From the IMG/VR virus record IMGVR_UViG_3300045988_140605: a stretch of DNA of 60,617 bases. The stretch is one strand, 5' to 3'. Positions 2,363 to 40,990 of this stretch are shown here, one piece after another (position 1 is the stretch's first letter; every line of letters starts with the position of its first letter). A program made the translations under genes and the position numbers. Origin of the DNA: a virus. The notes beneath the pieces were generated by a model. That model worked only from the letters and a program-made list of their open reading frames with translations, was not told the DNA's origin and made no database searches.

Positions 2363-2665
2363 TTACTGCGAATGAATTGGCAGCTTGTTTACTTCCTGCA
2401 TTATACGTTTAGCGGAGCCGTTTCCGCCCATCTTTTCATAAGGTTGATATAAATACTCGTAGAGGTTTTCATATTCATCACTGGTGATATACCCCCGATC
2501 AACGTAGTGCATCCCCAGAAACAAAATCCGGTCATGGGCAAGCCCCACGAGCATCCGCGTCTTAACGTCCTTCTTTTCGTAGCGCTTGGAAATATACGCC
2601 CAGAAGCCGGAGGACGCAATGACCGCGCAGACGATGGTGAGGACCATCTGAATCCATGAATCCAT
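2363..2665 (-). CDS. Membrane-anchored protein in the lysis cassette (possible holin or lysis accessory)
   Basis: It has an N-terminal TM helix (MVLTIVCAVIASSGFWAYI) and lies directly downstream of the endolysin. Confidence 0.5.
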   Translation of the reverse strand: MDSWIQMVLTIVCAVIASSGFWAYISKRYEKKDVKTRMLVGLAHDRILFLGMHYVDRGYITSDEYENLYEYLYQPYEKMGGNGSAKRIMQEVNKLPIHSQ

Positions 2666-2682
2666 ACTTCTCGCCTTTCTGC

Positions 2683-3498
2683 TTAGCCGCCGGAAACGGC
2701 GGAGTATTTGTTGGATACCCAGACGATCTGCTTCCCATGCCGCCCGGCGTGCCAGCCGTTGGGGGCGTCAGCCACCCATTCCAGCACTTCGCCCTTCTTC
2801 AGGTGTCCCAGACTGGCATACTTGGTGGAATCGCCCACGCGCATGTTCACCGAGTTCGCCGTGATGGTAATTACCTTGCCGTTGGGAATCGTAGGCTCAG
2901 GCTGCATGGGTGTAACAGGCTGGGTTTCGACCTCCGTCCCCCAGTCTGGCCGTCCGTAACCGGCAAGACGATTGTAGGTCAGGCGGTACTTCTTCTTACA
3001 TACGCCGCCACCGTTGGCAATCACACCATTCGCGCCGGAAGTGTTGCCCTCGATAGTGTAAACGTAGCTGCCATCCACGGCATATACCAGTCCTGTATGC
3101 TGCACGGCGGGGCCGCCGATAGCGTCCTTGGGCCAGAAAAAGATCTGATCGCCCGGCTGTGGCGCATCGAACAAACGCCCTTTCTTCTTGTAATAATTCC
3201 GGCTGTAACGGCATCCCGCGCCGCAGTTGCTCTTCCCCAGCGGCTGATTGGTCAGCTTCAGCGCCGCGCTTAACCCATAGGCCTGCACGAAGCACCAGTC
3301 CACAAACACATCACACCAGGCGTAACCGTTCTTCCGACCGTTGTAGAACCCAAGTGCATCGAGGTCTCGCGCATACTTGGTGTAGTTCTTGTTGCCGGCG
3401 TTCGCGGTCTTATCGTCCAGGTTCGACTTGTCGTTCTTCTCCAGATAGCCGATCTCGTTCTCGGCCACCTGAATGACCTGTCTATAGTCATAGCTCAT
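2683..3498 (-). CDS. Endolysin: CHAP peptidase/amidase with C-terminal SH3b wall-binding domain
   Basis: NGYAWCDVFVDW carries the catalytic Cys and HTGLVYAV...TIEGNTS the His, as in CHAP domains. The C-terminal VNMRVGDSTKYASLGHLKKGEVLEW is SH3-like. The start overlaps the RT stop (ATGA). Confidence 0.85.
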   Translation of the reverse strand: MSYDYRQVIQVAENEIGYLEKNDKSNLDDKTANAGNKNYTKYARDLDALGFYNGRKNGYAWCDVFVDWCFVQAYGLSAALKLTNQPLGKSNCGAGCRYSRNYYKKKGRLFDAPQPGDQIFFWPKDAIGGPAVQHTGLVYAVDGSYVYTIEGNTSGANGVIANGGGVCKKKYRLTYNRLAGYGRPDWGTEVETQPVTPMQPEPTIPNGKVITITANSVNMRVGDSTKYASLGHLKKGEVLEWVADAPNGWHAGRHGKQIVWVSNKYSAVSGG

Positions 3499-4604
3499 TC
3501 GGATTCCTCCTTCCGCAGTTCCTTCACATATTGGTCTGTTCTTTGCAGCAGCTTGTAGCTGTCGCCCTTGCTCGCATGATTCTTCCAGGAGTTATAGCAT
3601 TCATCCACCTTTTCGGTGCTTCGCTCGCCCTTACGCTCAAGGGCGGCCAGCTTGGCCATTTTCCTGCGCTCATGCTTGATGTTGGCGGAATTCAGGGTCA
3701 TAACCACCTTGCCGGCCTCTGTCAACCGGTAGTGAAAACCCAGAAACAGAATTCCGTCGGATAGGGGGATAATGCCGGTTTTCTTGATGTTGAACTGACA
3801 TTCGAGGGCTCGAAGCCTTTGCGCAATGTGCGCCTTGCATTCAAGCAGATACTCCGCATCCTCATGGATCAGGATGAAATCGTCCATGTACCGGATGTAA
3901 AACTCGATGTGCAGCTCTTCCTTGATGAAATGGTCGAGCGCGTTCAGGATACCGATTCCGGCAATCTGAATCATCTGGCTTCCCGGATTGTAGCCGATCT
4001 CACGATCATACTGGTTGTCCAAAATACAGCAGGCCTGCTGGTAAGTCCAGCCGTCGATCACCTTCTTGAAGCAGTCCTTTACCACCTTGTGCGACATATT
4101 CGGGTAATAGCCCTTGATGTCGCATTTCAGCACATATCCCGCCGTGCCGTGCTTTCTGTAAAACCTTTGCAGAAAGTTCTTCAGCCTCTCCCTCGCTTTA
4201 TCCGGTCCCTTCCCTTTTTGGCAGGCCATGTTGTCGTAGATGAAGCTGCGGCTGATCTTGGGGTAGAGAATATTGTCATTCAGGCTTCTTTGGAAAACGC
4301 GATCCCGAAAATGTACGCTCACAATGTCGCGCTCCTTGGGGTAGTAAACCTTAAATTTTCGGGTCTTTTTCTGCTTGTATTTTCCATTTTGAAGCTGACG
4401 GGCAAGAATCAGATTCTCCTCAATATTGTTGAGAAAGTAATGCGCCGGGGTATCTTTCCATAAAACGCCCTTGACGCATTTCATCATCGATTCGTGCAGT
4501 GCTTCATAGCCTGCAACTTTTTGAAAATCTCCGGGGTGCTTAGACCGATCATCACCCTCAGGCGATGCGGCCATCCCCTTCGTATTGTTTCGCGTGTTCT
4601 TCAC
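3495..4604 (-). CDS. DGR reverse transcriptase
   Basis: The active site is YIRYMDDFILIH (YMDD). The motif-4 region GYNPGSQMIQ matches the DGR-type (I/L)GxxxSQ signature. The gene is adjacent to TR and Avd. The start (GTG 4604 or ATG 4574) is uncertain. Confidence 0.9.
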   Translation of the reverse strand: MKNTRNNTKGMAASPEGDDRSKHPGDFQKVAGYEALHESMMKCVKGVLWKDTPAHYFLNNIEENLILARQLQNGKYKQKKTRKFKVYYPKERDIVSVHFRDRVFQRSLNDNILYPKISRSFIYDNMACQKGKGPDKARERLKNFLQRFYRKHGTAGYVLKCDIKGYYPNMSHKVVKDCFKKVIDGWTYQQACCILDNQYDREIGYNPGSQMIQIAGIGILNALDHFIKEELHIEFYIRYMDDFILIHEDAEYLLECKAHIAQRLRALECQFNIKKTGIIPLSDGILFLGFHYRLTEAGKVVMTLNSANIKHERRKMAKLAALERKGERSTEKVDECYNSWKNHASKGDSYKLLQRTDQYVKELRKEESE

Positions 4605-4680
4605 GCCTGGTCACTCGGCTCCTTGTGTCAGATTGAAAATGCGCCAAGCCTGCGGCTCAGCCCTGTGATTTTCTAAAGAG

Positions 4681-4803
4681 CACAATCCGGGGAGAAACGA
4701 TTCGCGTTGCTGGCGTTGTTGTTGTTGACATAGCCCGCGGAATTCACATTCCACGTATTATTCGCATTGCCACGATTAGCACTCCGCAAACGCACGTTCT
4801 GCG
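4681..4803 (-). repeat. DGR template repeat (TR)
   Basis: This 123-nt segment matches 5916-6038 at 110 of 123 positions. All 13 mismatches fall where TR has plus-strand T, which is A on the transcribed strand. The coding-strand run AACAACAACAAC is typical of DGR TRs. Confidence 0.9.
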
Positions 4804-4839
4804 CTCAGCCTACAGCCAGTATGTCAATAGAGTAGCATG

Positions 4840-5265
4840 TCACCTGAGCATGAAGCGATTGGCGTCATCATCGATCCAGCCGCATACACGGTTTTTTACA
4901 TTCACCACCATCTGCCCCCAGTATGCCACGCGGCGGGAACTCAAATGGAAAATGCGATGCGCCAGATCAATCAAATAAAGAAGGCGCTTGCAGTTACGCA
5001 GCGCCTGTCTTTGCAGATTGCTCCGTTCGCGGTAATCGCCCAGCTGAAACGGCGTTCCAACCCGGACGTTCACGTCATTCGCTTCACGGATCCCCAGATA
5101 GATGTTCTTCGCCGTCTCGACGATGTCATCCGTTACCTGTTTCCTGTATTCGGGAAGGAAGACCTTTTCGTTTGCCGTAATCTCGATGGTGTATCGAGCC
5201 AGGCTCTCTGCCTTAATCAGCAGCGAAAACTTTCCTTCCTCTCTTTCACCGACGGGTACGGACAT
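4840..5265 (-). CDS. avd: Avd-like DGR accessory protein (four-helix-bundle type)
   Basis: ATG 5265 overlaps the upstream stop (TAATG). The protein is 141 aa, helical and basic, and lies between the target and TR/RT as in many DGRs. Confidence 0.7.
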   Translation of the reverse strand: MSVPVGEREEGKFSLLIKAESLARYTIEITANEKVFLPEYRKQVTDDIVETAKNIYLGIREANDVNVRVGTPFQLGDYRERSNLQRQALRNCKRLLYLIDLAHRIFHLSSRRVAYWGQMVVNVKNRVCGWIDDDANRFMLR

Positions 5266-5744
5266 TAGTCCTCTGCCTCCGTCCAGCCATAGGCTCCGGG
5301 CTCCCACACGTTATTATCCACGTCGGACACCCAATGCTTGCCGTTATGGCTGCACTTTGCGCCCTTTTCGTAAGCGTCATGAGCGCCGATAGGCTGAGAC
5401 CATGCGGGCCACTCTTCCGCCGGATCGGCGGTCAGCGCCCAGAGAGACGCAGCAGCAGGCGGCGTCCAATCGTCCTGCGACGTGTGCGCCTGCACGCAGC
5501 GATAGAGCTTCCGCTGCTCGCCTTCACCATGAGTGCGCAGGTCGCCCTGCTTATAGGCGATGCCGCTCTGCCAGGGCGCAAACACGTCGATGTTTTCCAT
5601 GGCCGTGGTATCGTCGATATCGCCCTTTTCGGCCATAACCACAAAGGCGATGTTCGCCGTCTTTTTCAGCGCTTCCGTTTCCATTCTGGCAACTTCCAGC
5701 GCCTGCTTTTCAGCGAGATTCATAGTGTTCTTCACATATTCCAT
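5265..5744 (-). CDS. Protein with two CBM5/12-like carbohydrate-binding repeats
   Basis: YKQGDLRTHGEGEQRKLYRCVQAHTSQDDWTPPAAASLW and YEKGAKCSHNGKHWVSDVDNNVWEPGAYGW fit the aromatic Y..G....W.P..W pattern. The RBS is GAAGGAGGG. Confidence 0.5.
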   Translation of the reverse strand: MEYVKNTMNLAEKQALEVARMETEALKKTANIAFVVMAEKGDIDDTTAMENIDVFAPWQSGIAYKQGDLRTHGEGEQRKLYRCVQAHTSQDDWTPPAAASLWALTADPAEEWPAWSQPIGAHDAYEKGAKCSHNGKHWVSDVDNNVWEPGAYGWTEAED

Positions 5745-5858
5745 GGCTTTTCCCTCCTTCTATTGCACGCACGCTCTGCGCTTCGCTGGCGCGCGCTTTC
5801 TTGCTTTTTAATCACTGATTTTTAGTGCGTCGTAAACCATGTTTGCTCCTCATAATTT

Positions 5859-5893
5859 CCGGGCGGAGCCTTTCAGGCGGGCGTTCCGCCCGG
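5859..5893 (-). promoter_or_regulatory. GC-rich hairpin just 3' of the VR (candidate DGR target-recognition element)
   Basis: CCGGGCGGA (5859-5867) is complementary to TCCGCCCGG (5885-5893), giving a 9-bp stem. It starts 12 nt after the target stop codon. No U-tract follows. Confidence 0.5.
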
Positions 5894-5904
5894 ATGGGGA
5901 GCGA

Positions 5905-7155
5905 TTAGCAGATGACACAAGCCGGGGAGAAACGACTCGCGTTGCTGGCGTAGTAGCTGCCGACATAGCCCGCGGAAATCACACCCCACGTATTATACGC
6001 ATTGCCACGACTAGCACTCCGCAAACGCACGTACTGCGGAGAATTTGCGTTCAGCGCCGGAATCTTGAAGCCCTCGAATTTATTGGAATCGTACCAGCCG
6101 ACGGGGCCGGTCACGCCGAGGCGCTTACGCCAATACGGCCAGTAGCTGCCTTCCACGTTCGCCAGTTGCGGATTAGCGTTCATCTGCTCAAGCGACGGCA
6201 GGAAGAACGTATCGTAGGTGTCCTCCGTGGTTGCGGAGAGACCTTCTACCGTATTCAGCGCAGTCGTCACCTTGACTGGTTTGATGGCGGCAAGGAAGTC
6301 GTCCGAGAAGCCGGACATAAAGCCTTTCTTGTTATACTGATCCGGGCGAATGTCGAAATCCTCCTGGCTCGTCCACCAGTTGTTGCCAGCGGCGTTCAGG
6401 TATTGGCGAATTGCCGAGGTTTCCCAGCGGTTATGGCCGTAGCCCGCGCACTGCATGGAATTCAGTCCGTCATCGCCAACAGAGGCAAGCTGCATTGTGC
6501 CGAGACTGGTTCCATCGCTGCCAGAAGTCACGTCAACCGTCTCAATGGGGCTGGCCGCATCGGGCGTTGCCCAGCTCTTTACCTTAAATGCGGTGGTCGC
6601 CACATCCGGCAGGCTCTCAAAACCGCTCAGACGACCACCTGCTGGTACAGCCTGCGTCAGGGTGAACTGCCAGGTTGTGCCTGCGTCCGCACCCTTGCTG
6701 CCCCACTTCGCGCCGAAGGTGACATAGTAGGTTCCAGCAGCCAGACCGTCCGGGCAGTTCATGAACGCCTGCTGATGGCTGAACTGCACGCCGTAGGCGG
6801 AGCACAGATGCATCTGGAGCCACAGACCCGGCACCTCGCTGCCGTCCTTCAGCGTCACCATGCCGTAGTTCACAATGTTCCATGCCACCTGATAGGCGGT
6901 TTCGTCCGTGTTATGGGCGCTGTCGTCCATGTCCTTCCACGGCACGATGAGCTGATCGCCGATCGGGAACAGCCGGGGCAGCTCATCCAGGCTGCTGGTG
7001 CGCACCAGATGGGCAATCTGTGCCATGGAGCTGTAGATTTCGCTGCGCTTTCCTTCCGCCAGCATGGCCAGATAACCATTTTGACGATCCAGCGCATCTT
7101 TGATCAACATGCCCGTTTCGTTGAGCATGATGGGATCATTGGTGATGGTACTCAT
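5905..7155 (-). CDS. DGR variable (target) protein, putative receptor-binding tail-fibre-region protein
   Basis: ATG 7155 (MSTITNDP) lies 7 nt after the upstream stop. The VR encodes the C-terminal ~40 aa (...RGNAYNTWGVISAGYVGSYYASNASRFSPACVIC). It sits at the distal end of the fibre gene block. Confidence 0.85.
   Translation of the reverse strand: MSTITNDPIMLNETGMLIKDALDRQNGYLAMLAEGKRSEIYSSMAQIAHLVRTSSLDELPRLFPIGDQLIVPWKDMDDSAHNTDETAYQVAWNIVNYGMVTLKDGSEVPGLWLQMHLCSAYGVQFSHQQAFMNCPDGLAAGTYYVTFGAKWGSKGADAGTTWQFTLTQAVPAGGRLSGFESLPDVATTAFKVKSWATPDAASPIETVDVTSGSDGTSLGTMQLASVGDDGLNSMQCAGYGHNRWETSAIRQYLNAAGNNWWTSQEDFDIRPDQYNKKGFMSGFSDDFLAAIKPVKVTTALNTVEGLSATTEDTYDTFFLPSLEQMNANPQLANVEGSYWPYWRKRLGVTGPVGWYDSNKFEGFKIPALNANSPQYVRLRSASRGNAYNTWGVISAGYVGSYYASNASRFSPACVIC
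5916..6038 (-). repeat. DGR variable repeat (VR)
   Basis: This is the counterpart of TR 4681-4803, offset by 1235 nt. It lies in frame at the 3' end of the target gene. Substitutions occur only at TR adenine positions. Confidence 0.9.
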
Positions 7156-7162
7156 ATCAGTA

Positions 7163-7366
7163 TCACTCCTTTTCAACTTTCACGCAAATTTTTCCGTCCT
7201 GGAGCGTGAGGCCCAGCGCCTGAAACAGAGCGATCTGCGCCGCGGAATCCTCCACGGATTGGGCAGCCGCCTCGGCGCGGTTGGCTGCGGCGGTCGCGTC
7301 GCCCACGGCAGTGTTCGGAATCGATTTCGCAATGGCGATAGCTGCGCCAAGAGTTGCTGCATCCAT
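7163..7366 (-). CDS. Short Ala-rich fibre-module protein (C-terminal LGL..DGKICVKV motif)
   Basis: ATG 7366 follows GGAGGAG. The C-terminus ALGLTLQDGKICVKVEKE is shared with the two upstream fibre genes. Confidence 0.55.
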   Translation of the reverse strand: MDAATLGAAIAIAKSIPNTAVGDATAAANRAEAAAQSVEDSAAQIALFQALGLTLQDGKICVKVEKE

Positions 7367-7380
7367 CGGTTCACTCCTCC

Positions 7381-7623
7381 TTACGTCAAAGAAACCCAAG
7401 AGCCGTCTACGCCCAGCTGCCACATTTTCTTGAAACCGGCAGTATAAGCGATGGTTCCTGGGTGATAGTGCTCGTTGAGCAGGGAAAGGTCATTTTCCGA
7501 TCCCACCAGAACGGAGGGAGCGTTTGCGCCTTGATGGAGCCTTCCATCCTGTACATAATCCACTTCGCCGCTGGTCTGCTGACGGCCGACAAAGTGAAGC
7601 GGATGCTCGGGAACTGTAATCAT
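7381..7623 (-). CDS. Hypothetical fibre-associated protein
   Basis: The 80-aa ORF has an AAGGAGGAA RBS and lies within the fibre block. Confidence 0.5.
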   Translation of the reverse strand: MITVPEHPLHFVGRQQTSGEVDYVQDGRLHQGANAPSVLVGSENDLSLLNEHYHPGTIAYTAGFKKMWQLGVDGSWVSLT

Positions 7624-7644
7624 ATATCGTTTCCTCCTTTTTCA

Positions 7645-8067
7645 TCAGGATCGTTCCACGCGGACACAGAGCTTTCCATTCTGAACGGATAACCCAAGGC
7701 TATCCAGCGTGCTTTGCAGCTGTCCGGGCAGCGCTGCCGCCGCGTCGTTCGCGGTAATCGCCGCATTATTCGCAGCGGTCGCTTTTGCAGAGGCGTTGGA
7801 AGCGGCGTTATTAGCGGCGGTGGACGCGCTGTTGCAGTTGGCGATGGCAGCGTTGGTCTGTGTGGTCATGTTTTCAATGGCGTCGTCCGCGCTGGCCCTT
7901 GCCTGCTCTGCGGCGGTGTTCGCATTGGCAGCTGCTTTATCCGCAAGCGTTTTTCCGCTGATCACATCATCGTAGCACTGGGAGATGGCGTCATGGATAG
8001 ATTGCCGCACATCTTTTCCATATACGGCCTTGAGGATCTGTCCGAGAAGCGTCGAAATATTAGCCAT
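7645..8067 (-). CDS. Ala/Asn-rich fibre protein paralog (140 aa)
   Basis: Its N-terminus AVYGKDVRQSIHDAISQCYDDV and C-terminus LGLSVQNGKLCVRVERS are both shared with the 8060-9307 product. Confidence 0.6.
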   Translation of the reverse strand: MANISTLLGQILKAVYGKDVRQSIHDAISQCYDDVISGKTLADKAAANANTAAEQARASADDAIENMTTQTNAAIANCNSASTAANNAASNASAKATAANNAAITANDAAAALPGQLQSTLDSLGLSVQNGKLCVRVERS

Positions 8068-9307
8068 CCGCTCTCACCACCTTTGTGCAGAGCTTGCCCT
8101 CCACAAGAGATAGCCCCAGCGCTTCAAACATCTCCTGCAAAACGCTTGGAAGGCCGGCAACCGCCTCATCGCAGGCAAGCTTTGCATTGTTGGCCTCATA
8201 GGTGGCGGTATTACAGGCGTTTTTTGATTGATTAGCCTCAAGAGCGGCTGAGGTGGCGTTTACTGCGGAATCGTTTGCAGAGTTCGTCGCTGCTTCGCAC
8301 AGTGCCGCAGCATTCTCCGCAGCTAACGCCTTTTGGTTTGCGTTGGCTGTAGCGGCATCGCAGTTTTTCACGGCGGTATTCACGTCATTGATTACAGCCT
8401 GTGCATTCGCAGCCTTTTCATCGGCATTCGTTGCCGCTGTATTGGCAGCGGAAGCTTTTTCAGTGGCGGTATCAGCAGCTGAGTTAGCCGCTTCTGCTGC
8501 TTCATTCGCAGCGGTAGCGGCACTGTTGGCGCTGTCCGCAGCAGCGGTTGCCTTCGTATCGGCCGCATTTGCCGCCTGTGCGGCGGCGGTCGCGCTATCG
8601 GCAGCCGAGGAAGCCGCTGTCGCCGCCTGATTGGCTGCGGTCGCTTTCGTGTCGGCAAGATTAGCCTTTTCTTCTGCAAGTGAGGCCTTCTCGTTGGCAT
8701 TTGAAGCCGCAGAGATTGCGGACGCAGCGGCGGTATTCGCAGCTGATGCGGCATTGTCAGCAGCATCCTTCGCTGTGTTAGCGTTCTCTGTCGCTGTCTG
8801 CGCTGCTGCCGCTTTCTGCCCGGCAAGAGTGGCTTTCTCATCCGCCGTATTGGCGGCCGTCGTCGCCATCTGGGCAGCGGAAGAAGCACTCGTTGCGGCA
8901 GCATCCGCCGCCGTTTTGGCTGCGTTCGCTGCGTCAGCCGCATCGGAAGCGCTTTTCGCCTTAGCATTAGCGTTTGAAGCTGCCTGATTGGCAGAAAGAA
9001 CGGCTTCATCAACCCGATCCGCAGCGTCATTAGCAGAAGAAGCGGCTGCGTTGGCAGCGCTGGCCGCATTATTCGCAGCCGTAGCGGCGCTGTTGGCATT
9101 AGCCGTCGCCGTTTTGGCCAGATTCGTCTGGGCTTCGGATTGAGTAGCCTCCTGATTAGCGTTTGCGGCGGCGGAATCGGCCTTTGTTTTGGCGACCGTT
9201 ACGTCGTCATAGCATTCTTTGATAGCGTCGTGAATGGAACTGCGAACCTCTTCTCCGTAAACGGCATTATTGATGTTATTCAGTAGCTGCTGAATCCTGC
9301 TCGCCAT
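8060..9307 (-). CDS. Ala/Asn-rich fibre protein paralog (415 aa, low-complexity coiled-coil-like)
   Basis: The N-terminus is AVYGEEVRSSIHDAIKECYDDV. About 330 aa are A/N/T/S-rich repeats (AANANxxATxAA). The C-terminus is LGLSLVEGKLCTKVVRADG. Confidence 0.65.
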   Translation of the reverse strand: MASRIQQLLNNINNAVYGEEVRSSIHDAIKECYDDVTVAKTKADSAAANANQEATQSEAQTNLAKTATANANSAATAANNAASAANAAASSANDAADRVDEAVLSANQAASNANAKAKSASDAADAANAAKTAADAAATSASSAAQMATTAANTADEKATLAGQKAAAAQTATENANTAKDAADNAASAANTAAASAISAASNANEKASLAEEKANLADTKATAANQAATAASSAADSATAAAQAANAADTKATAAADSANSAATAANEAAEAANSAADTATEKASAANTAATNADEKAANAQAVINDVNTAVKNCDAATANANQKALAAENAAALCEAATNSANDSAVNATSAALEANQSKNACNTATYEANNAKLACDEAVAGLPSVLQEMFEALGLSLVEGKLCTKVVRADG

Positions 9308-32107: not shown

Positions 32108-35100
32108 TCAATTACTATATTTCGACACTGTCGAAGCTGAAATTCCAAGCGCGCTCGCGATTTCGGAGTTCGTATAGCCAGAAGCGCGCATCGCTTTGAT
32201 TCTCGCCTGCTTTCCGCTCGAAAGCGTAGTCGTTGCACGCGGCGTTGCGTAAGACCGCACCTGATCGATGTCCGCAAACCGCAGAATCTGCGATAGGGTG
32301 GACTCAGAAAACGCTCCAGCCTGGATAGCCTGCCAACCGCGTTCCGTAATTTCGATTGGATGCCGCTGTGCTCCGTATCGAGTACGCGCACGGCTCAGCG
32401 CAAGCTGCCCCTGCTTCTTGACTTCTTTCTGTGTCATGTCGGGGTTGGCCCGCTTCATGGCCTTCACTTCGCTGTTGGCCGCCAGCTGGGCCTGCCGCTC
32501 GCGAGGAGCGTTCTTCAAGGCAATGTTCAGCTGATGCATCATGCGATCGACTTCATCGCGATATGTTTCCTTGGCCGTCGCGCTGTACTTAATCCGCCCA
32601 GCAGTCACCATTTCCTTGCGGGCCTGGTTCGCTAAAGCCTTCATACGGTTCGCATAGGTGGCGTATGCTTCCTCCTGGGGGGTCCCAGAGGATAGCTTCT
32701 GGGCGTCCTTCACCTCTGCCATTTGGGTCGAGTCCTGCGTCCGCAGTTTCTTCTTCCCATGCTTGTCGGTGTATTCTTCCCGGACCTCCTTATACTGAAG
32801 CTCCCCGGTACGGGGATCAATTTTCGGCGAACCCTTGCGCTTCAACACAGCTTCCGGCGATTTGGCGCGGCTGATTAACGTGGATGCCCCGTAATGGATC
32901 TCTCCATCCTCATCGGGGTGGGCCTGATACTTCTTTTTCAGGGCAGGGATTCCGTTGTCAATCTCGCTCGCCTTCCAGTCCAGCTTGTGCTTCTCCGCAT
33001 CAATGACCACCATGGAGTGGCGCACAGCGCGGGCCAGTTCATCCTGACTGGCGCCTTTTAGCGTCATGTCCGTAATCAGGTTGGATACCTTGCCCATCTC
33101 CATCTGGGTAGCACTCTTTGTCATCCGCTTAAACTCATGGCCATCGCGATAGTAGTGTTCCTTGCCGTCGGCGTCGGTTTCCACTCTCGAATAGCCATAG
33201 CTCATCTTGGGGTCGAATCCTTCCAAACCTTTAAGCGGTGGTGTCGAAGTGATCTTCACCTTGCTTCCGCTCGAATTGCACGGAATGACCATCACCGTAT
33301 CGCCGTCAAAGTCAGCGCCCGACAGCCGAGCGGCGACGTTGGCATTGATGCCGATCGCGTCCTGCGCATCTGGTCCCAGAATCCTGCGTCCATCCGGCTG
33401 CTTGTTGTTCACCGTCAGAATCGGAATCTCAAAGGTTCCACCATGGGGATACCGAATCAGGGCAACTGTCTCGCCGTCGTGATAATTGGGGGCGTAAACT
33501 TCATCGTCCTTCATCGTTGCGATAGGCAGGATTACCTGATACTTTTGCCTCGGCAGGGCAGCGGCCTGCAAATGCACAGCCGCCGAATCGCAGTCATTGG
33601 CGAAGGTTTCCAGCAGCTGCTTCTTTACCGTGGGATTGGTAAGCGAACAAATCTCATCAAACTCGGCCTGCTTGTCCGCAGCGGCCAGGTTCAGCTGTTT
33701 GTTAATCAGCTGCATACTCTGCTTGCTCAGGAACTGGCTCGGCAACGCATCTGCCCATTCGCCCCAATCGCCTTCGGCTCTCGTTTTGTTGATGAGCCCC
33801 AGCTGTGCTACTCCGTTCTCATCCACATAGTGGTACTGGCCGCCTTCTTCCTTGATAAGCGCGCCGAATGGGTTGTTCGGATCATCGGTCTTGGCTTTCT
33901 TCAGCACATCCTGACCGGGCGTTTTGTTGGTATTAAATATCACGTCTACGCCGTCAGGCATGTCGTCGCTGTAGAAGGCCATTCCCTTTATGTACTTGTC
34001 TCCGTCCACCAGAATACGCACCTGCGCATAGTGGCTGTCGCCCAGATCCAGATCATCTACGCCTCTGCGAATCTCGATGGTGCCGTCTTTCTCGATGCCT
34101 GTGTGCCCATCAGGCGCAACGTCATCTCGATAGCGGATCATCAAACGGTCGGAATCCATAGAGGCCGGGTATTCAAACCCTTTCTCAAAGCGTTCCTCGC
34201 CGTTTTCGTCCACACGCATCTTGTAATCGGTGATGGTATGGACGTTCTCAAAGTCGTAAATATCCTTATGCTCGGTGCCGGGCGGGCAGAGAACCTTGAG
34301 ATTCGTCTGCTTGCCGGGATTTGTAACCTGCGGAACGCCTCCGCCATACACTGCATAGCCCTCATCCTGAAGAATTTGCAGCGCCTGATTGAGTTTTTCC
34401 CGGCTGATGCCAAGCTCCCGCTCCACACCAGTGCCAACATCGATCAGACCTTTTTCTTTGATCTGCTGACGCAGAAAATCGGCGGTATTCTGAGCGGCGT
34501 TGGTTCTCGCAGCACTGCGCTCGTTGAGCAGCGAACGCAAAGTTGACTCGTTGATGCCCATCTCCCGGGCAACCTCGGCCTGACTTTTCCCGTCAGCCAG
34601 CATCGAGCGGGCGCGGGCAATCTGGTCGCTCCTTCGCTGATTGATCGCATTGGAATAATGCGTTCTCAGCTGCGTTGTGTTCTCCAGTCCCACGGCCTTG
34701 GCAATTTCGGCTTCGCTCATGCCCTGCTTGCGCAGATCCTGAACACGGCTGATGAAATCCCCGCTGTGTTGGTAGGGATCCTCTCCGGAACCCCATGGGT
34801 AGCGCCCTGAACGCCGGGGCATGCCATAATGATACAACTCCGTCTTGGGATTGGTTTTTTCCCAAATATCCCGGTAGGCTCTGTGAAGCACTTCGCTGGC
34901 GCTGATCTGCCCATGGCGAAGTCCCTCAGAATACGCTACATCCCAAATTTCTCCGGGAACAAGCTCAATTTCGATGTCTTCCAGCTCGTCAAACACCTGC
35001 ATATGACGCAGTTCGTCATAAGTGTCTTCCGACATTTCACTGTTGATATAATCCCAATTCAGACTGCCGTCGCTGTGGAACATATCTTCCAGCACGCCCA

Positions 35101-35215
35101 TCGTCGCAAGTTCATCGATTCTGTCGGGCCGACGCTGAGAATACAGTTCGAAAACAGTATCAACGACTTTATATTCAAGCCCGTTCGGAGCCGTATAACG
35201 TCTCACGTCGTCCAT
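32108..35215 (-). CDS. Large multidomain protein with RNAP beta-prime / YonO / RdRP-like double-psi beta-barrel motif and several HTH modules
   Basis: GETVALIRYPHGGTFEIPILTV...VAARLSGADFDGDTVMVIP (DFDGD at 33299-33313) parallels beta-prime ...LNRAPTLHR...YNADFDGDQMAVHVP and QDE-1 ...SGGDYDGD. A downstream MGKVSNLITD follows. HTH-like segments include GMSEAEIAKAVGL, GKSQAEVAREMGINESTLRSLL and GYTNSEIASALGISASTVSKY. Confidence 0.6.
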   Translation of the reverse strand: MDDVRRYTAPNGLEYKVVDTVFELYSQRRPDRIDELATMGVLEDMFHSDGSLNWDYINSEMSEDTYDELRHMQVFDELEDIEIELVPGEIWDVAYSEGLRHGQISASEVLHRAYRDIWEKTNPKTELYHYGMPRRSGRYPWGSGEDPYQHSGDFISRVQDLRKQGMSEAEIAKAVGLENTTQLRTHYSNAINQRRSDQIARARSMLADGKSQAEVAREMGINESTLRSLLNERSAARTNAAQNTADFLRQQIKEKGLIDVGTGVERELGISREKLNQALQILQDEGYAVYGGGVPQVTNPGKQTNLKVLCPPGTEHKDIYDFENVHTITDYKMRVDENGEERFEKGFEYPASMDSDRLMIRYRDDVAPDGHTGIEKDGTIEIRRGVDDLDLGDSHYAQVRILVDGDKYIKGMAFYSDDMPDGVDVIFNTNKTPGQDVLKKAKTDDPNNPFGALIKEEGGQYHYVDENGVAQLGLINKTRAEGDWGEWADALPSQFLSKQSMQLINKQLNLAAADKQAEFDEICSLTNPTVKKQLLETFANDCDSAAVHLQAAALPRQKYQVILPIATMKDDEVYAPNYHDGETVALIRYPHGGTFEIPILTVNNKQPDGRRILGPDAQDAIGINANVAARLSGADFDGDTVMVIPCNSSGSKVKITSTPPLKGLEGFDPKMSYGYSRVETDADGKEHYYRDGHEFKRMTKSATQMEMGKVSNLITDMTLKGASQDELARAVRHSMVVIDAEKHKLDWKASEIDNGIPALKKKYQAHPDEDGEIHYGASTLISRAKSPEAVLKRKGSPKIDPRTGELQYKEVREEYTDKHGKKKLRTQDSTQMAEVKDAQKLSSGTPQEEAYATYANRMKALANQARKEMVTAGRIKYSATAKETYRDEVDRMMHQLNIALKNAPRERQAQLAANSEVKAMKRANPDMTQKEVKKQGQLALSRARTRYGAQRHPIEITERGWQAIQAGAFSESTLSQILRFADIDQVRSYATPRATTTLSSGKQARIKAMRASGYTNSEIASALGISASTVSKYSN

Positions 35216-38642: not shown

Positions 38643-38906
38643 TCAGACTCTATGCTTCACCCTGTCCCTTTCTTCCGCCTGCTTGGCGTTGTTCCATCTG
38701 TCCAGCGTGCCCACCAGATAACCGGTAATGCGGCGCACCCGTTCAAACGGCTTGCCCTCTACATGATAGGTCAGCTCAACGTGCTCCTTATCGATCACGT
38801 TAATGTCCATTCCTTTCAGCTCACTGCCGTACTTTTCCAGCCCACGCTTCTGATAAGCAGCGATTTCTTTTTCGCTCATCGGCCAGCCGATTACGTTAAT
38901 CAGCAT
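38643..38906 (-). CDS. Stand-alone glycyl-radical module (the NrdD C-terminal RxxGY segment in a separate ORF)
   Basis: ATG 38906 follows AGGAGA with an 8-nt spacer. The C-terminus RVRRITGYLVGTLDRWNNAKQAEERDRVKHR matches the NrdD glycyl-radical tail (E. coli RRVCGYLG...NAGKQEEVKRRVKH). Confidence 0.6.
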   Translation of the reverse strand: MLINVIGWPMSEKEIAAYQKRGLEKYGSELKGMDINVIDKEHVELTYHVEGKPFERVRRITGYLVGTLDRWNNAKQAEERDRVKHRV

Positions 38907-40785
38907 GAGAAATATCTCCTTTCTGCTCTGTGTCCTCATCCGGATTCCACGAATCCTCCGAATCGATGCGGTCAATAGTCTCGCTTTCAGTAAAGCGGTG
39001 CCGTCTACCGCATTTGGGGCAAATATCCCCGATAATGCCGTTGTAGCCGCACACAGGGTCTCGATCCACCGGATGGTTGATGCTGCCATAACCGATACCG
39101 CATTCCTTCATATGGCGAATGATTTTTTCAAACGCCTCCAGATTCTTGCTGGCGTCTCCGTCCATCTCCACATAGGAAATGTGCCCCGCATTGGTCAGGG
39201 CATGGTACGGCGCTTCGATTTCTATTTTTTTCGCAGCAGTGATGTGAAAATATACCGGAACATGGAATGAGTTCGTGTAATACTCCCGATCGGTCACGCC
39301 CTCAATCTCGCCGTAGAATTCCCGATCCAGTTTCACAAACCGGCCGGACAGACCCTCGGCGGGCGTCGCTAGGCACGTCACGTTCAGGGATAGGTACTCG
39401 CTCTGGCAATCGCAGTAGTTGCGAATGTAATGAACAATTTCCAACCCCAGCTTCTGCGCCTCTTCGCTTTCGCCATGATGCTTGCCAGTCAATGCTTTAA
39501 GGGCTTCCGCCAATCCAATAAAGCCGATGGAGAGTGTGCCGTGGCGCAGCACCTCAAGCACCGGATCGTCCGGTTGCAGCTTTTCCGAATCCAGCCACAC
39601 CCCTTCGCCCATCAGGAAGGGGAAATTGCGCGCACGCCGGGCGGCCTGCACTTCAAAACGCTCCAGCAGCTGCTTCATTACATAAGTCAGCATGTCGTTG
39701 AGGTGCATGAAAAATACCCGCGTGTCCCCATGGGATTCAATCGCCAGCCGCGGCAGATTGATGCTGGTGAAAGAAAGGTTTCCTCTGCCTGGCGCAATCT
39801 CCGGCCCGCATACATTGCCCATCACCCGCGTGCGGCAGCCCATGTAGGCCACCTCGGTTTCCGGGTGTCCGGGCTTATAGTATTGCAGATTGAAGGGCGC
39901 ATCCAGAAAGCTGAAATTGGGAAACAGCCGCTTGGCGGAAACCCGCATGGCCAGCCGGAACAGATCGTAATTGGGGTCGCCCGGATTATAGTTCACGCCT
40001 TCCTTTACCCGAAAAATCTGAATGGGGAAGATCGGCGTTTCTCCGTTGCCTAGCCCCGCCTCCGTGGCCAGCAAAAGCTGCTTCATGGCCAGCCGCCCTT
40101 CCCAGGAGGTGTCCATGCCATAGTTGATGCTGCTGAAGGGCACCTGCGCACCGGCCCGGCTGTGCATGGTGTTCAGGTTGTGAATCAGGCCTTCCATGGC
40201 CTGATAGGTGTCGCGAACGGTCTTTCGCATGGCGTATTCCTCTCGCCATCTCAGGTCAGTATCGTACTTCATCTCCGCGTTGTTGATGAGTTCCGACTGA
40301 ATATCGAAAGCCTCACGCAGGTACTTGTTGTACGTCAGCCGCACGCCATCCGCCATGGCATAATCGAAATCTACAATGCTCTGGCCTCCGTGCTGATCGT
40401 TCTGGTTGCTCTGGATAGCGATTGCCGCCAGAGCGGCATAGCTTCCAATGCTCTTCGGCTCCCGCAGATGCCCGTGCCCGGTGTTGAAGCCGCCCTTAAA
40501 GAGCTTTCTCAGCTCGATCTGCGTGCAGGTGGTAGTCCAGCCGTAGAAGTCCAGATCATGAATATGAATCCAGCCCTTGCGGTGCAGATTGGCGATTTCC
40601 GGATCCACCATGGTTTCCAGATAATATTCCTTGGCGGTGTTGGCGCCCTGCTGGAGCATCGCGCCCATTGGGGTATCGCCGTTGATGTTGCCGTTTTCCC
40701 GTTTGAGGTTGCAATTCCTCGCATCAGAGCGGTTGATCTCGTCGCAAATCTTCATCACCGTCTGACCAAAGTTGAGTTCATTCAT
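38896..40785 (-). CDS. nrdD: Anaerobic ribonucleoside-triphosphate reductase, large part ending at the Zn ribbon
   Basis: ATG 40785 follows GAGGGA. Typical NrdD blocks are present (GWIHIHDLDF, SNQNDQHGGQS, NFSFLDAPFN) and it ends ...CGYNGIIGDICPKCGRRH plus a 33-aa acidic tail. No RxxGY occurs in this frame. Confidence 0.9.
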   Translation of the reverse strand: MNELNFGQTVMKICDEINRSDARNCNLKRENGNINGDTPMGAMLQQGANTAKEYYLETMVDPEIANLHRKGWIHIHDLDFYGWTTTCTQIELRKLFKGGFNTGHGHLREPKSIGSYAALAAIAIQSNQNDQHGGQSIVDFDYAMADGVRLTYNKYLREAFDIQSELINNAEMKYDTDLRWREEYAMRKTVRDTYQAMEGLIHNLNTMHSRAGAQVPFSSINYGMDTSWEGRLAMKQLLLATEAGLGNGETPIFPIQIFRVKEGVNYNPGDPNYDLFRLAMRVSAKRLFPNFSFLDAPFNLQYYKPGHPETEVAYMGCRTRVMGNVCGPEIAPGRGNLSFTSINLPRLAIESHGDTRVFFMHLNDMLTYVMKQLLERFEVQAARRARNFPFLMGEGVWLDSEKLQPDDPVLEVLRHGTLSIGFIGLAEALKALTGKHHGESEEAQKLGLEIVHYIRNYCDCQSEYLSLNVTCLATPAEGLSGRFVKLDREFYGEIEGVTDREYYTNSFHVPVYFHITAAKKIEIEAPYHALTNAGHISYVEMDGDASKNLEAFEKIIRHMKECGIGYGSINHPVDRDPVCGYNGIIGDICPKCGRRHRFTESETIDRIDSEDSWNPDEDTEQKGDISHAD

Positions 40786-40810
40786 CTTTTCGTTCCCTCG
40801 ATCCTCCGTC

Positions 40811-40990
40811 TTACAGGAATTTTGCCGCCCAGAGCAAAGCCAGCGCCAGAATAGCCGTAGGAATCCAAGTGGGAGCAAGCACCCAGAGCCACGACCATTC
40901 AATTACGCCAACCAGCTTGAGAACAATAAATATAACAGTCAGTGTGCTGCATAAGCCCAATCCGCCGCCGGCGCAGTTATGCTTGTTCAT
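40811..40990 (-). CDS. 59-aa small membrane protein (LKLxGVIxWSWxWVLAP type)
   Basis: The hand translation is MNKHNCAGGGLGLCSTLTVIFIVLKLVGVIEWSWLWVLAPTWIPTAILALALLWAAKFL. The RBS is AAGGAGGAA. Confidence 0.5.
   Translation of the reverse strand: MNKHNCAGGGLGLCSTLTVIFIVLKLVGVIEWSWLWVLAPTWIPTAILALALLWAAKFL

Follow-up and report, generated by a model that had tools for sequence, protein, structure and literature searches.

The founding diversity-generating retroelement (DGR) is that of Bordetella phage BPP-1, in which the target gene, the accessory gene, the template repeat (TR) and the reverse transcriptase (RT) gene are ordered mtd-avd-TR-brt; its GenBank record reads brt-TR-avd-mtd-tail genes. 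DGRs with a DUF6273 target have been described in the Faecalibacterium prophages Lelie, CP11, Roos and Pioen, where the variable repeat (VR) lies at the C-terminal end of the domain, and two Faecalibacterium prophage DGRs are active by read-level variation (PMC11792537). DUF6273 targets of DGRs were also reported in the gut phages of the "tentaclin" study (PMC10743442). In addition, the survey of Wu et al. 2018 (PMC5758913) described the B1 architecture, open reading frames (ORFs) located between the target and the core, AAC-linked 3-nt indels of the VR and occasional non-adenine substitutions. Here we describe a locus at positions 3495-7155 of the IMG/VR virus record IMGVR_UViG_3300045988_140605, a stretch of 60,617 nt hereafter termed the window. 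The locus is almost certainly a complete DGR, and comparison of its natural copies indicates that it is very probably still active in nature. Its layout is that of the commonest DGR type, with the target followed by avd-TR-RT on one strand.

Compared to BPP-1, the present locus has the same gene order and strand, and occupies an equivalent place in the genome, between the tail genes and the lysis/attachment end. Both systems possess homologous RTs, an accessory protein of the Avd (accessory variability determinant) fold, a VR at the extreme 3' end of the target gene followed by a GC-rich inverted repeat, and AAY codons in the TR, which is 134 nt long in BPP-1 and 123 nt here. They differ in the target, here a DUF6273 protein without detectable similarity to Mtd; in the Avd sequence, which has no similarity to that of BPP-1; in an unrelated CBM5/12 gene inserted between target and avd; in motif 4 of the RT, which reads PGSQMIQ here and IGSLTSQ in the Bordetella enzyme bRT; and in the loop of the hairpin after the VR, which departs from the GRNA tetraloop consensus (PMC3240598). 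Similar to the DGRs of the Faecalibacterium prophages and the "tentaclin" phages, the locus belongs to a temperate phage of gut Clostridia and has a DUF6273 target adjoining the tail genes, but the window phage is not one of them. All four features surveyed by Wu et al. also occur in the window phage and its relatives, with the difference that the recurrence of VRs longer by one codon can be demonstrated here in near-identical backgrounds with unchanged TR, a demonstration that the single genomes of the survey did not permit. Every feature has a published precedent and no new principle emerges; the locus is a clear but ordinary example, in which the small points of interest are a non-canonical motif 4, the recurrent gain of a codon in the VR and a possible eroded TR. 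Its value lies in an unusually clean natural dataset, in which the TR is frozen, the VR differs in nearly every sample, and natural marker transfers reveal the direction of information flow without experiment. The phage is a good candidate for following DGR dynamics, selection on single VR positions and phage-host pairs in gut cohorts, and it supplies an RT, non-canonical in motif 4, that can be compared with bRT biochemically.

Anatomy of the locus and its repeat pair

The locus consists of the following features, given in the order of transcription:

5905-7155, minus strand: target gene, 416 aa, with the VR at its 3' end and a C-terminal DUF6273 domain (residues ~239-414)
5916-6038, minus strand: VR, coding for the C-terminal ~40 aa of the target, with 13 differences from the TR
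5858-5894, minus strand: GC-rich inverted repeat beginning ~10 nt past the target stop codon (DNA fold)
5265-5744, minus strand: nested gene of 159 aa outside the DGR proper, encoding a CBM5/12 carbohydrate-binding module (Pfam CBM_5_12, 9.6e-12)
4840-5265, minus strand: avd, 141 aa, isoelectric point (pI) 9.4, assigned by phrog_3206, an AlphaFold2 (AF2) model and Foldseek
4681-4803, minus strand: TR, non-coding, 36 nt past the avd stop codon and 77 nt ahead of the RT start
4681-4700, minus strand: undiversified 3' end of the TR, resembling an initiation-of-mutagenic-homing element of the template type (IMH*), with A at 4686; constant coding-strand sequence CGTTTCTCCCCGGATTGTG
3495-4604, minus strand: DGR RT, 369 aa, with a GTG start at 4604 and an alternative ATG at codon 11 (coordinate 4574)

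A first-pass annotation, made from the letters and their ORFs, had already proposed a complete DGR here. The minus-strand ORFs of the RT, avd and the target lie where it had placed them, and the four parts that it named each pass independent tests; it had missed the 159-aa gene between target and avd.

The TR (4681-4803) and the VR (5916-6038) align without a gap over 123 nt, and the similarity stops at both edges. Exact comparison revealed 13 mismatches, all of which fall on plus-strand T in the TR, i.e. on A of the coding (minus) strand. Since the TR contains 32 adenines, the probability that 13 random positions of the 123 would all fall on adenines is 2.8e-9. In the VR frame, 16 of these adenines fall at codon position 1, 16 at position 2 and none at position 3, and the TR contains 13 AAY codons, including four consecutive in-frame AAC. 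The confinement of adenines to codon positions 1 and 2, mostly within AAY, would allow recoding without ever making a stop codon. The first-pass annotation had anticipated the gapless alignment, the 13 mismatches confined to template adenines, the number of about 32 adenines and the AAC AAC AAC AAC run, all of which hold; twelve of its mismatch positions are also correct, and the one placed at 4797 belongs at 4798.

The TR is flanked by stop codons in the VR/target frame, and is therefore non-coding. The VR is in frame with the target, the translation of which ends with ...RFSPACVIC*, in agreement with the earlier proposal that it encodes the last ~40 aa of the protein, ending in SPACVIC. Twelve of the 13 differences alter an amino acid at sites that are variable between phage copies, and the remaining one (5921, equivalent to 4686 in the TR) is a fixed marker. 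A search of the 60.6-kb window for a third copy, with patterns of half a repeat in which the adenines were replaced by N and as many as 8 further mismatches were tolerated, found only the TR and the VR.

Natural copies and the direction of transfer

About 30 near-identical copies from other metagenomes were gathered by pattern scans and exact-protein look-ups. The phage is widespread in public metagenome assemblies, the exact Avd protein being indexed in 335 blocks of the sequence collection. Among the 29 near-identical loci that contain the TR, it is the same as that of the window in 27, while the 28 loci that contain the VR hold 24 distinct VRs, 20 of them gapless. These 20 gapless versions carry substitutions in 343 of 640 adenine-site cells, compared to 7 of 1820 non-adenine cells (Fisher p ~1e-226). 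In copies only 0.2-0.3% apart over the remaining 1.1 kb of the target gene, 11-21 of the 123 VR positions differ, and none of the 24 distinct VRs contains a stop codon. Across the gapless set, 28 adenine sites vary and three (4800, 4783 and 4711) never do. The invariant adenines are the A of a CAG codon and the first bases of an AGT and an AGC Ser codon, respectively, and they probably reflect either selection for structural Gln and Ser residues or local protection from misincorporation.

The same pattern extends to distant relatives, the assemblies of which belong to Clostridia, Oscillospiraceae, Bariatricus and Anaerovoracaceae. Four of them (L001, L003, L004 and L005; RT 51-79% identical) likewise possess TR/VR pairs of their own, in which the mismatches fall on adenines only; in a fifth, L002, no TR/VR pair was found. 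L001, from a sheep-rumen Clostridia assembly with an RT 79% identical, encodes two paralogous targets in tandem, DUF6273 proteins of 401 and 415 aa (3546-4751 and 4804-6051), each with its own VR that bears 17 and 18 adenine-only mismatches, respectively, to a single TR.

Diversification always spares the last 19-20 nt at the 3' end of the repeat, which show one fixed difference at 4686; this position is A in the TR and C in 20 of the 20 distinct gapless VRs; the equivalent position is T in one divergent allele (L026/L032). Reading 4686 as a mutagenised site was rejected, given the C shared by all the gapless VRs. Judged from this invariance, 4686 is a fixed TR/VR marker, probably of the IMH/IMH* type. 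Consequently, of the 13 adenine mismatches that the first-pass annotation had counted, 12 stand as mutagenised sites in the window copy.

Variants of the TR itself provide insights into the direction of transfer. The TR of L007 carries a C>T change at a non-adenine site, and the L007 VR carries the same T. In L021 (ERZ28640001, scaffold_35), the repeat at the TR position (3463-3585) is bounded by the precise flanks of a TR and keeps the A at 4686 that marks TRs, but 12 of the 32 adenines are gone (8 A>G and 4 A>T); the VR of this locus (2228-2350) shows all 12 of these changes, in addition to nine at the remaining adenines and a single substitution of a non-adenine base at the repeat's 3' edge. 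Two explanations fit L021: adenine mutagenesis wore down its TR, the sequence of which later passed to the VR, or the assembly is chimeric. Altogether, the constancy of the TR while the VRs differ, together with the TR variants of L007 (one marker) and L021 (12 markers) that were copied into their own VRs, points to a unidirectional TR-to-VR transfer, as in mutagenic retrohoming.

The VR also varies in length. Four distinct VRs (L028, L033, L036 and L026/L032) are 126 nt long, with their own TR unchanged at 123 nt, and have five NNC codons opposite the four AAC codons of the TR (window 4715-4726). Three of the four occur in different backgrounds, the nearest relatives of which (0.2-0.7% divergence) have VRs of normal length. 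An inherited longer allele was therefore rejected, and the presence of these VRs in separate near-identical backgrounds indicates a recurrent gain, as expected from RT slippage on the AAC repeat. Such slippage of the template was proposed from single genomes by Wu et al. 2018 (PMC5758913).

Beyond the VR, the inverted repeat at 5858-5894 has a predicted DNA folding energy of -19.4 kcal/mol (z = -3.3), with an inner hairpin CGGGCG-GAA-CGCCCG at 5878-5892 that is not followed by a T-tract. Promoter and terminator scans gave no more hits than shuffled sequence and called nothing at this hairpin. Each of the six VRs of the window and L001-L005 is followed at this position by a GC-rich hairpin, the stem of which differs in sequence, and by analogy the hairpin resembles the element that retrohoming requires in BPP-1. 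The predicted RNA folding of the avd-TR-RT intergenic transcript is no more stable than that of shuffled sequence (z = -0.05).

Modelled on Bordetella BPP-1, the process would start with transcription of the avd-TR-RT region. The RT, bound to the basic four-helix-bundle Avd, would reverse-transcribe the TR RNA, copying U, C and G faithfully and inserting any nucleotide opposite A, and the adenine-mutagenised cDNA would replace the VR at the 3' end of the target. The direction would be set by the 3' end of the repeat, with its difference at 4686, and probably by the GC-rich hairpin beyond the VR. Each round could recode up to ~17 codons in the last 40 residues of the DUF6273 domain.

Reverse transcriptase and accessory protein

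The RT matches Pfam RVT_1 (2e-9, above the cutoff) and phrog_1423, reverse transcriptase (5.9e-78). Its best sequence match in the PDB is bRT (8ub7_A, 1.2e-18), followed by a group II maturase (1.3e-7) and Cas6-RT-Cas1 (3e-6). Aligned against BPP-1 Brt taken from GenBank, it shows 27% identity over ~297 positions (BLASTP, E 1e-24). The YMDD motif is retained, and bRT Arg74 has a conserved equivalent in R92. With bRT ahead of the group II maturase by 11 orders of magnitude, the PDB search bears out the first-pass assignment of the 369-aa ORF as a DGR RT, and on these sequence matches the enzyme appears to belong to the DGR clade.

Motif 4 is less regular. The DGR signature of this motif is [I/V/L]GxxxSQ (PMC3521204, PMC7826257), and published rare variants include a "VQ" ending. 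The present RT reads IGYNPGSQMIQ, in which PGSQMIQ (PGSQMVQ in L004 and L005) is in register with IGSLTSQ of bRT; the G and the final Q are kept, with Pro in place of I/V/L and I/V in place of S. In an alternative register, IGYNPGSQ fits IGxxxxSQ, with one residue extra compared to the signature. Accordingly, of the two motifs listed by the first-pass annotation, YMDD holds, whereas its "NPGSQ" is not the canonical motif and provides an SQ only with that extra residue. The surrounding segment (RT residues ~216-226; window 3900-3960, minus strand) reads G[YF][ND]PGSQM[IV]QIAG in the RT and all five relatives, and bRT has GIPIGSLTSQLFAN there. The Pro of motif 4 aligns with Ile181 of bRT, a residue reported as promoting adenine mutagenesis.

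It is conceivable, if doubtful, that this RT clade represents a distinct working variant of the DGR enzyme, characterized by Pro at the Ile181 position and I/V for Ser, slippage by AAC units and leaky protection of the template. This idea is suggested by the substitution of about half of the adenine-site cells in natural VRs despite the Pro at the bRT Ile181 position, and by the addition of a whole AAC unit through slippage in ~1/6 of the distinct VRs, by which the loop length would vary too. If so, the eroded TR of L021 might have arisen from cDNA that occasionally homes into the TR, reflecting the leaky template protection, and DGRs could burn out by self-mutagenesis.

The accessory protein is supported in a different manner. 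The 141-aa ORF matches phrog_3206, "Avd protein of DGR" (1.2e-11), and encodes a basic protein (pI 9.4). Its alignment-based AF2 model is a four-helix bundle with a predicted local distance difference test score (pLDDT) of 88. A Foldseek search with the model retrieved 2rld and 2gsc of the S23-ribosomal/Avd superfamily and Bordetella Avd (8ub7_B and 4dwl), with a template-modelling score of 0.77 (up to 0.8) and a root-mean-square deviation of ~2 Å. The Avd-like assignment proposed earlier is thus upheld by the PHROG match and the Avd-like four-helix-bundle fold, with the Pfam and NCBIfam searches below threshold.

The diversified protein, alternative readings and the phage

The target matches Pfam DUF6273 (PF19789) over residues 239-414 (3e-10; 40.7 bits against a cutoff of 23.5), as well as phrog_19280 (4e-27). 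It has at least 2118 homologues, and PF19789 is present in all of the best 120 except one fragment. Its AF2 model has a pLDDT of 80, with low confidence for the VR-encoded residues, and its structural neighbours in BFVD are DUF6273 proteins. In the PDB, only one structural neighbour is significant, the DUF6273 domain at the N-terminus of the IgA peptidase of Thomasclavelia ramosa (9qa6, E 5e-6; PMC12402451).

Genes for Tal (phrog_3558, 7e-96) and for fibre-like proteins lie immediately upstream of the target, and this gene map together with the PHROG matches agrees with the first-pass statement that the target follows the Tal and fibre genes. In a single PHROG, phrog_19280, the matches of the fibre-like genes lie next to that of the target. 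In L022 (1-2575), a close relative with identical Avd, the DUF6273 domain is found not in a 416-aa protein of its own but at the C-terminal end of one polypeptide of >1520 aa, and in the 639-aa homologue P0117 it is preceded by collagen repeats. The coexistence of split and fused forms suggests a modular fibre architecture. Judging from gene position and the fusion homologues, the target most likely forms the ligand-binding distal end of the tail fibre, by which the phage would sample new receptor specificities.

Three consecutive genes of the fibre region (7163-7423, 7645-8067 and 8060-9307, minus strand) end in a common C-terminal motif, (A/S)LGL(S/T)(L/V)x(D/N/E)GK(L/I)C(V/T)(K/R)V(E/V), which may be a shared assembly or attachment module. 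The two larger ones contain long low-complexity repeats rich in Ala, Asn and Thr, and L001 has equivalents.

Several observations weigh against reading the locus as a complete and active DGR that diversifies a receptor-binding tip. The Avd candidate has no Pfam match, falls below threshold in the NCBIfam Avd model (0.053), lacks sequence similarity to BPP-1 Avd (hhalign negative) and matches nothing meaningful among PDB chains, either with the single sequence or with the profile; the Foldseek E-values are modest (best 1.7e-3), and helical bundles easily match one another. The target shows no link to Mtd by hhalign either, and homology to the BPP-1 prototype is therefore supported for the RT only. 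Searches of the target against PDB sequences (single and profile) also gave nothing meaningful, and its model has no significant match of C-type-lectin fold among the PDB structural neighbours; the lectin fold that the first-pass annotation had expected was thus not recovered, the domain being DUF6273 and its neighbour the DUF6273 domain of the IgA peptidase. Motif 4 departs from the DGR signature in both this RT and its relatives. The consensus of the BPP-1 retrohoming hairpin is a 7-10-bp stem with a 4-nt GRNA loop (PMC3240598), and the window hairpin, with either a 6-bp stem and a GAA loop or a 10-bp stem and a 17-nt loop, lies off it. Finally, activity of the window copy is deduced from differences between assemblies.

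Three rival explanations were weighed against this background. In one of them the DGR is genuine, but instead of a receptor-binding tail tip it diversifies a protein for decoration or adhesion, binding for instance mucus glycans or host immunoglobulin, or a protein that has another ligand. We regard this as unlikely but worth keeping in mind: the DUF6273 region also matches phrog_10993, "Hoc-like head decoration" (7.6e-9), the only significant PDB neighbour is the IgA peptidase domain, and the next gene downstream of the target encodes a carbohydrate-binding module. Nevertheless, the target gene is the last of the Tal-fibre block and is flanked by fibre-like genes that match adjacent parts of the same PHROG family, homologues fuse the DUF6273 domain to long fibre or collagen-like shafts, and the published DUF6273 targets of DGRs in Faecalibacterium and other gut phages were read as tail proteins (PMC11792537, PMC10743442). 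The other two explanations concern the retroelement itself. That the VR diverged long ago and the machinery of this copy is now a dead fossil is very improbable; a single assembled sequence cannot reveal current activity, and the TR of L021, without 12 of its adenines, indicates that decay occurs, but the RT, avd and target ORFs of the window are intact with YMDD kept, its TR is the consensus with all 32 adenines, and unrelated VRs occur in copies whose RT or Avd is identical and whose target diverges by 0.2-0.3% outside the VR.

The remaining possibility, an ordinary duplication kept alike by recombination next to an RT from an unrelated retroelement (a group II intron, a retron or a defence RT), seems to us hardly credible. 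In NCBIfam, the RT scores 67.5 bits in the group II RT/maturase model, below the cutoff of 300, and 25.5 in the retron RT model (cutoff 235), with weak matches to several defence-RT models. By contrast, an Rfam scan of 2500-8000 on both strands (E <= 1) matched no family, and thus no group II intron or retron RNA, and bRT is by far the best relative of the RT in the structural database. Moreover, the alignment of the repeats is gapless, their mismatches are adenine-specific with a codon-position bias, the avd gene adjoins the TR, and the excess of substitutions at adenine sites in natural VRs is beyond what duplication and drift would produce. The locus is therefore best viewed as a true DGR, with the target most likely at the distal end of the tail fibre.

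The nested 159-aa gene has a stop codon that overlaps the avd ATG (TAATG), and appears as a swappable module. Close relatives that share the Avd or RT protein exactly have two genes in its place, one of 67 aa and one of 49 aa, the latter of the XkdX family. The 67-aa product and the CBM protein are similar at their N-termini, and whichever version is present, the avd ATG is overlapped by the stop codon of the gene before it.

The window as a whole represents the genome of a temperate tailed phage, siphovirus-like in organization. From the left end, the minus strand encodes a Tn916-type integrase, a holin, an endolysin, the DGR, the fibre-like genes, Tal, a 2488-aa tape-measure protein, a portal, a terminase and replication genes. 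Megablast of 3400-7300 against 50,697 GenBank phage records gave no match, indicating that the phage is not a described isolate; at the protein level, the best match to the target is 42% identical and comes from an unannotated faecal phage. The nearest genome-derived relatives are Clostridia and Oscillospiraceae metagenome-assembled genomes, with RT identities of 71-79%, and the host is an anaerobic gut Clostridia bacterium. A scan of the window for tRNA genes found none. A 1035-aa ORF (32108-35215, minus strand) matches many helix-turn-helix families at both ends of the protein. In addition, the phage encodes a full-length anaerobic ribonucleotide reductase NrdD (38896-40902, minus strand; 6.7e-183), which fits a strictly anaerobic host.

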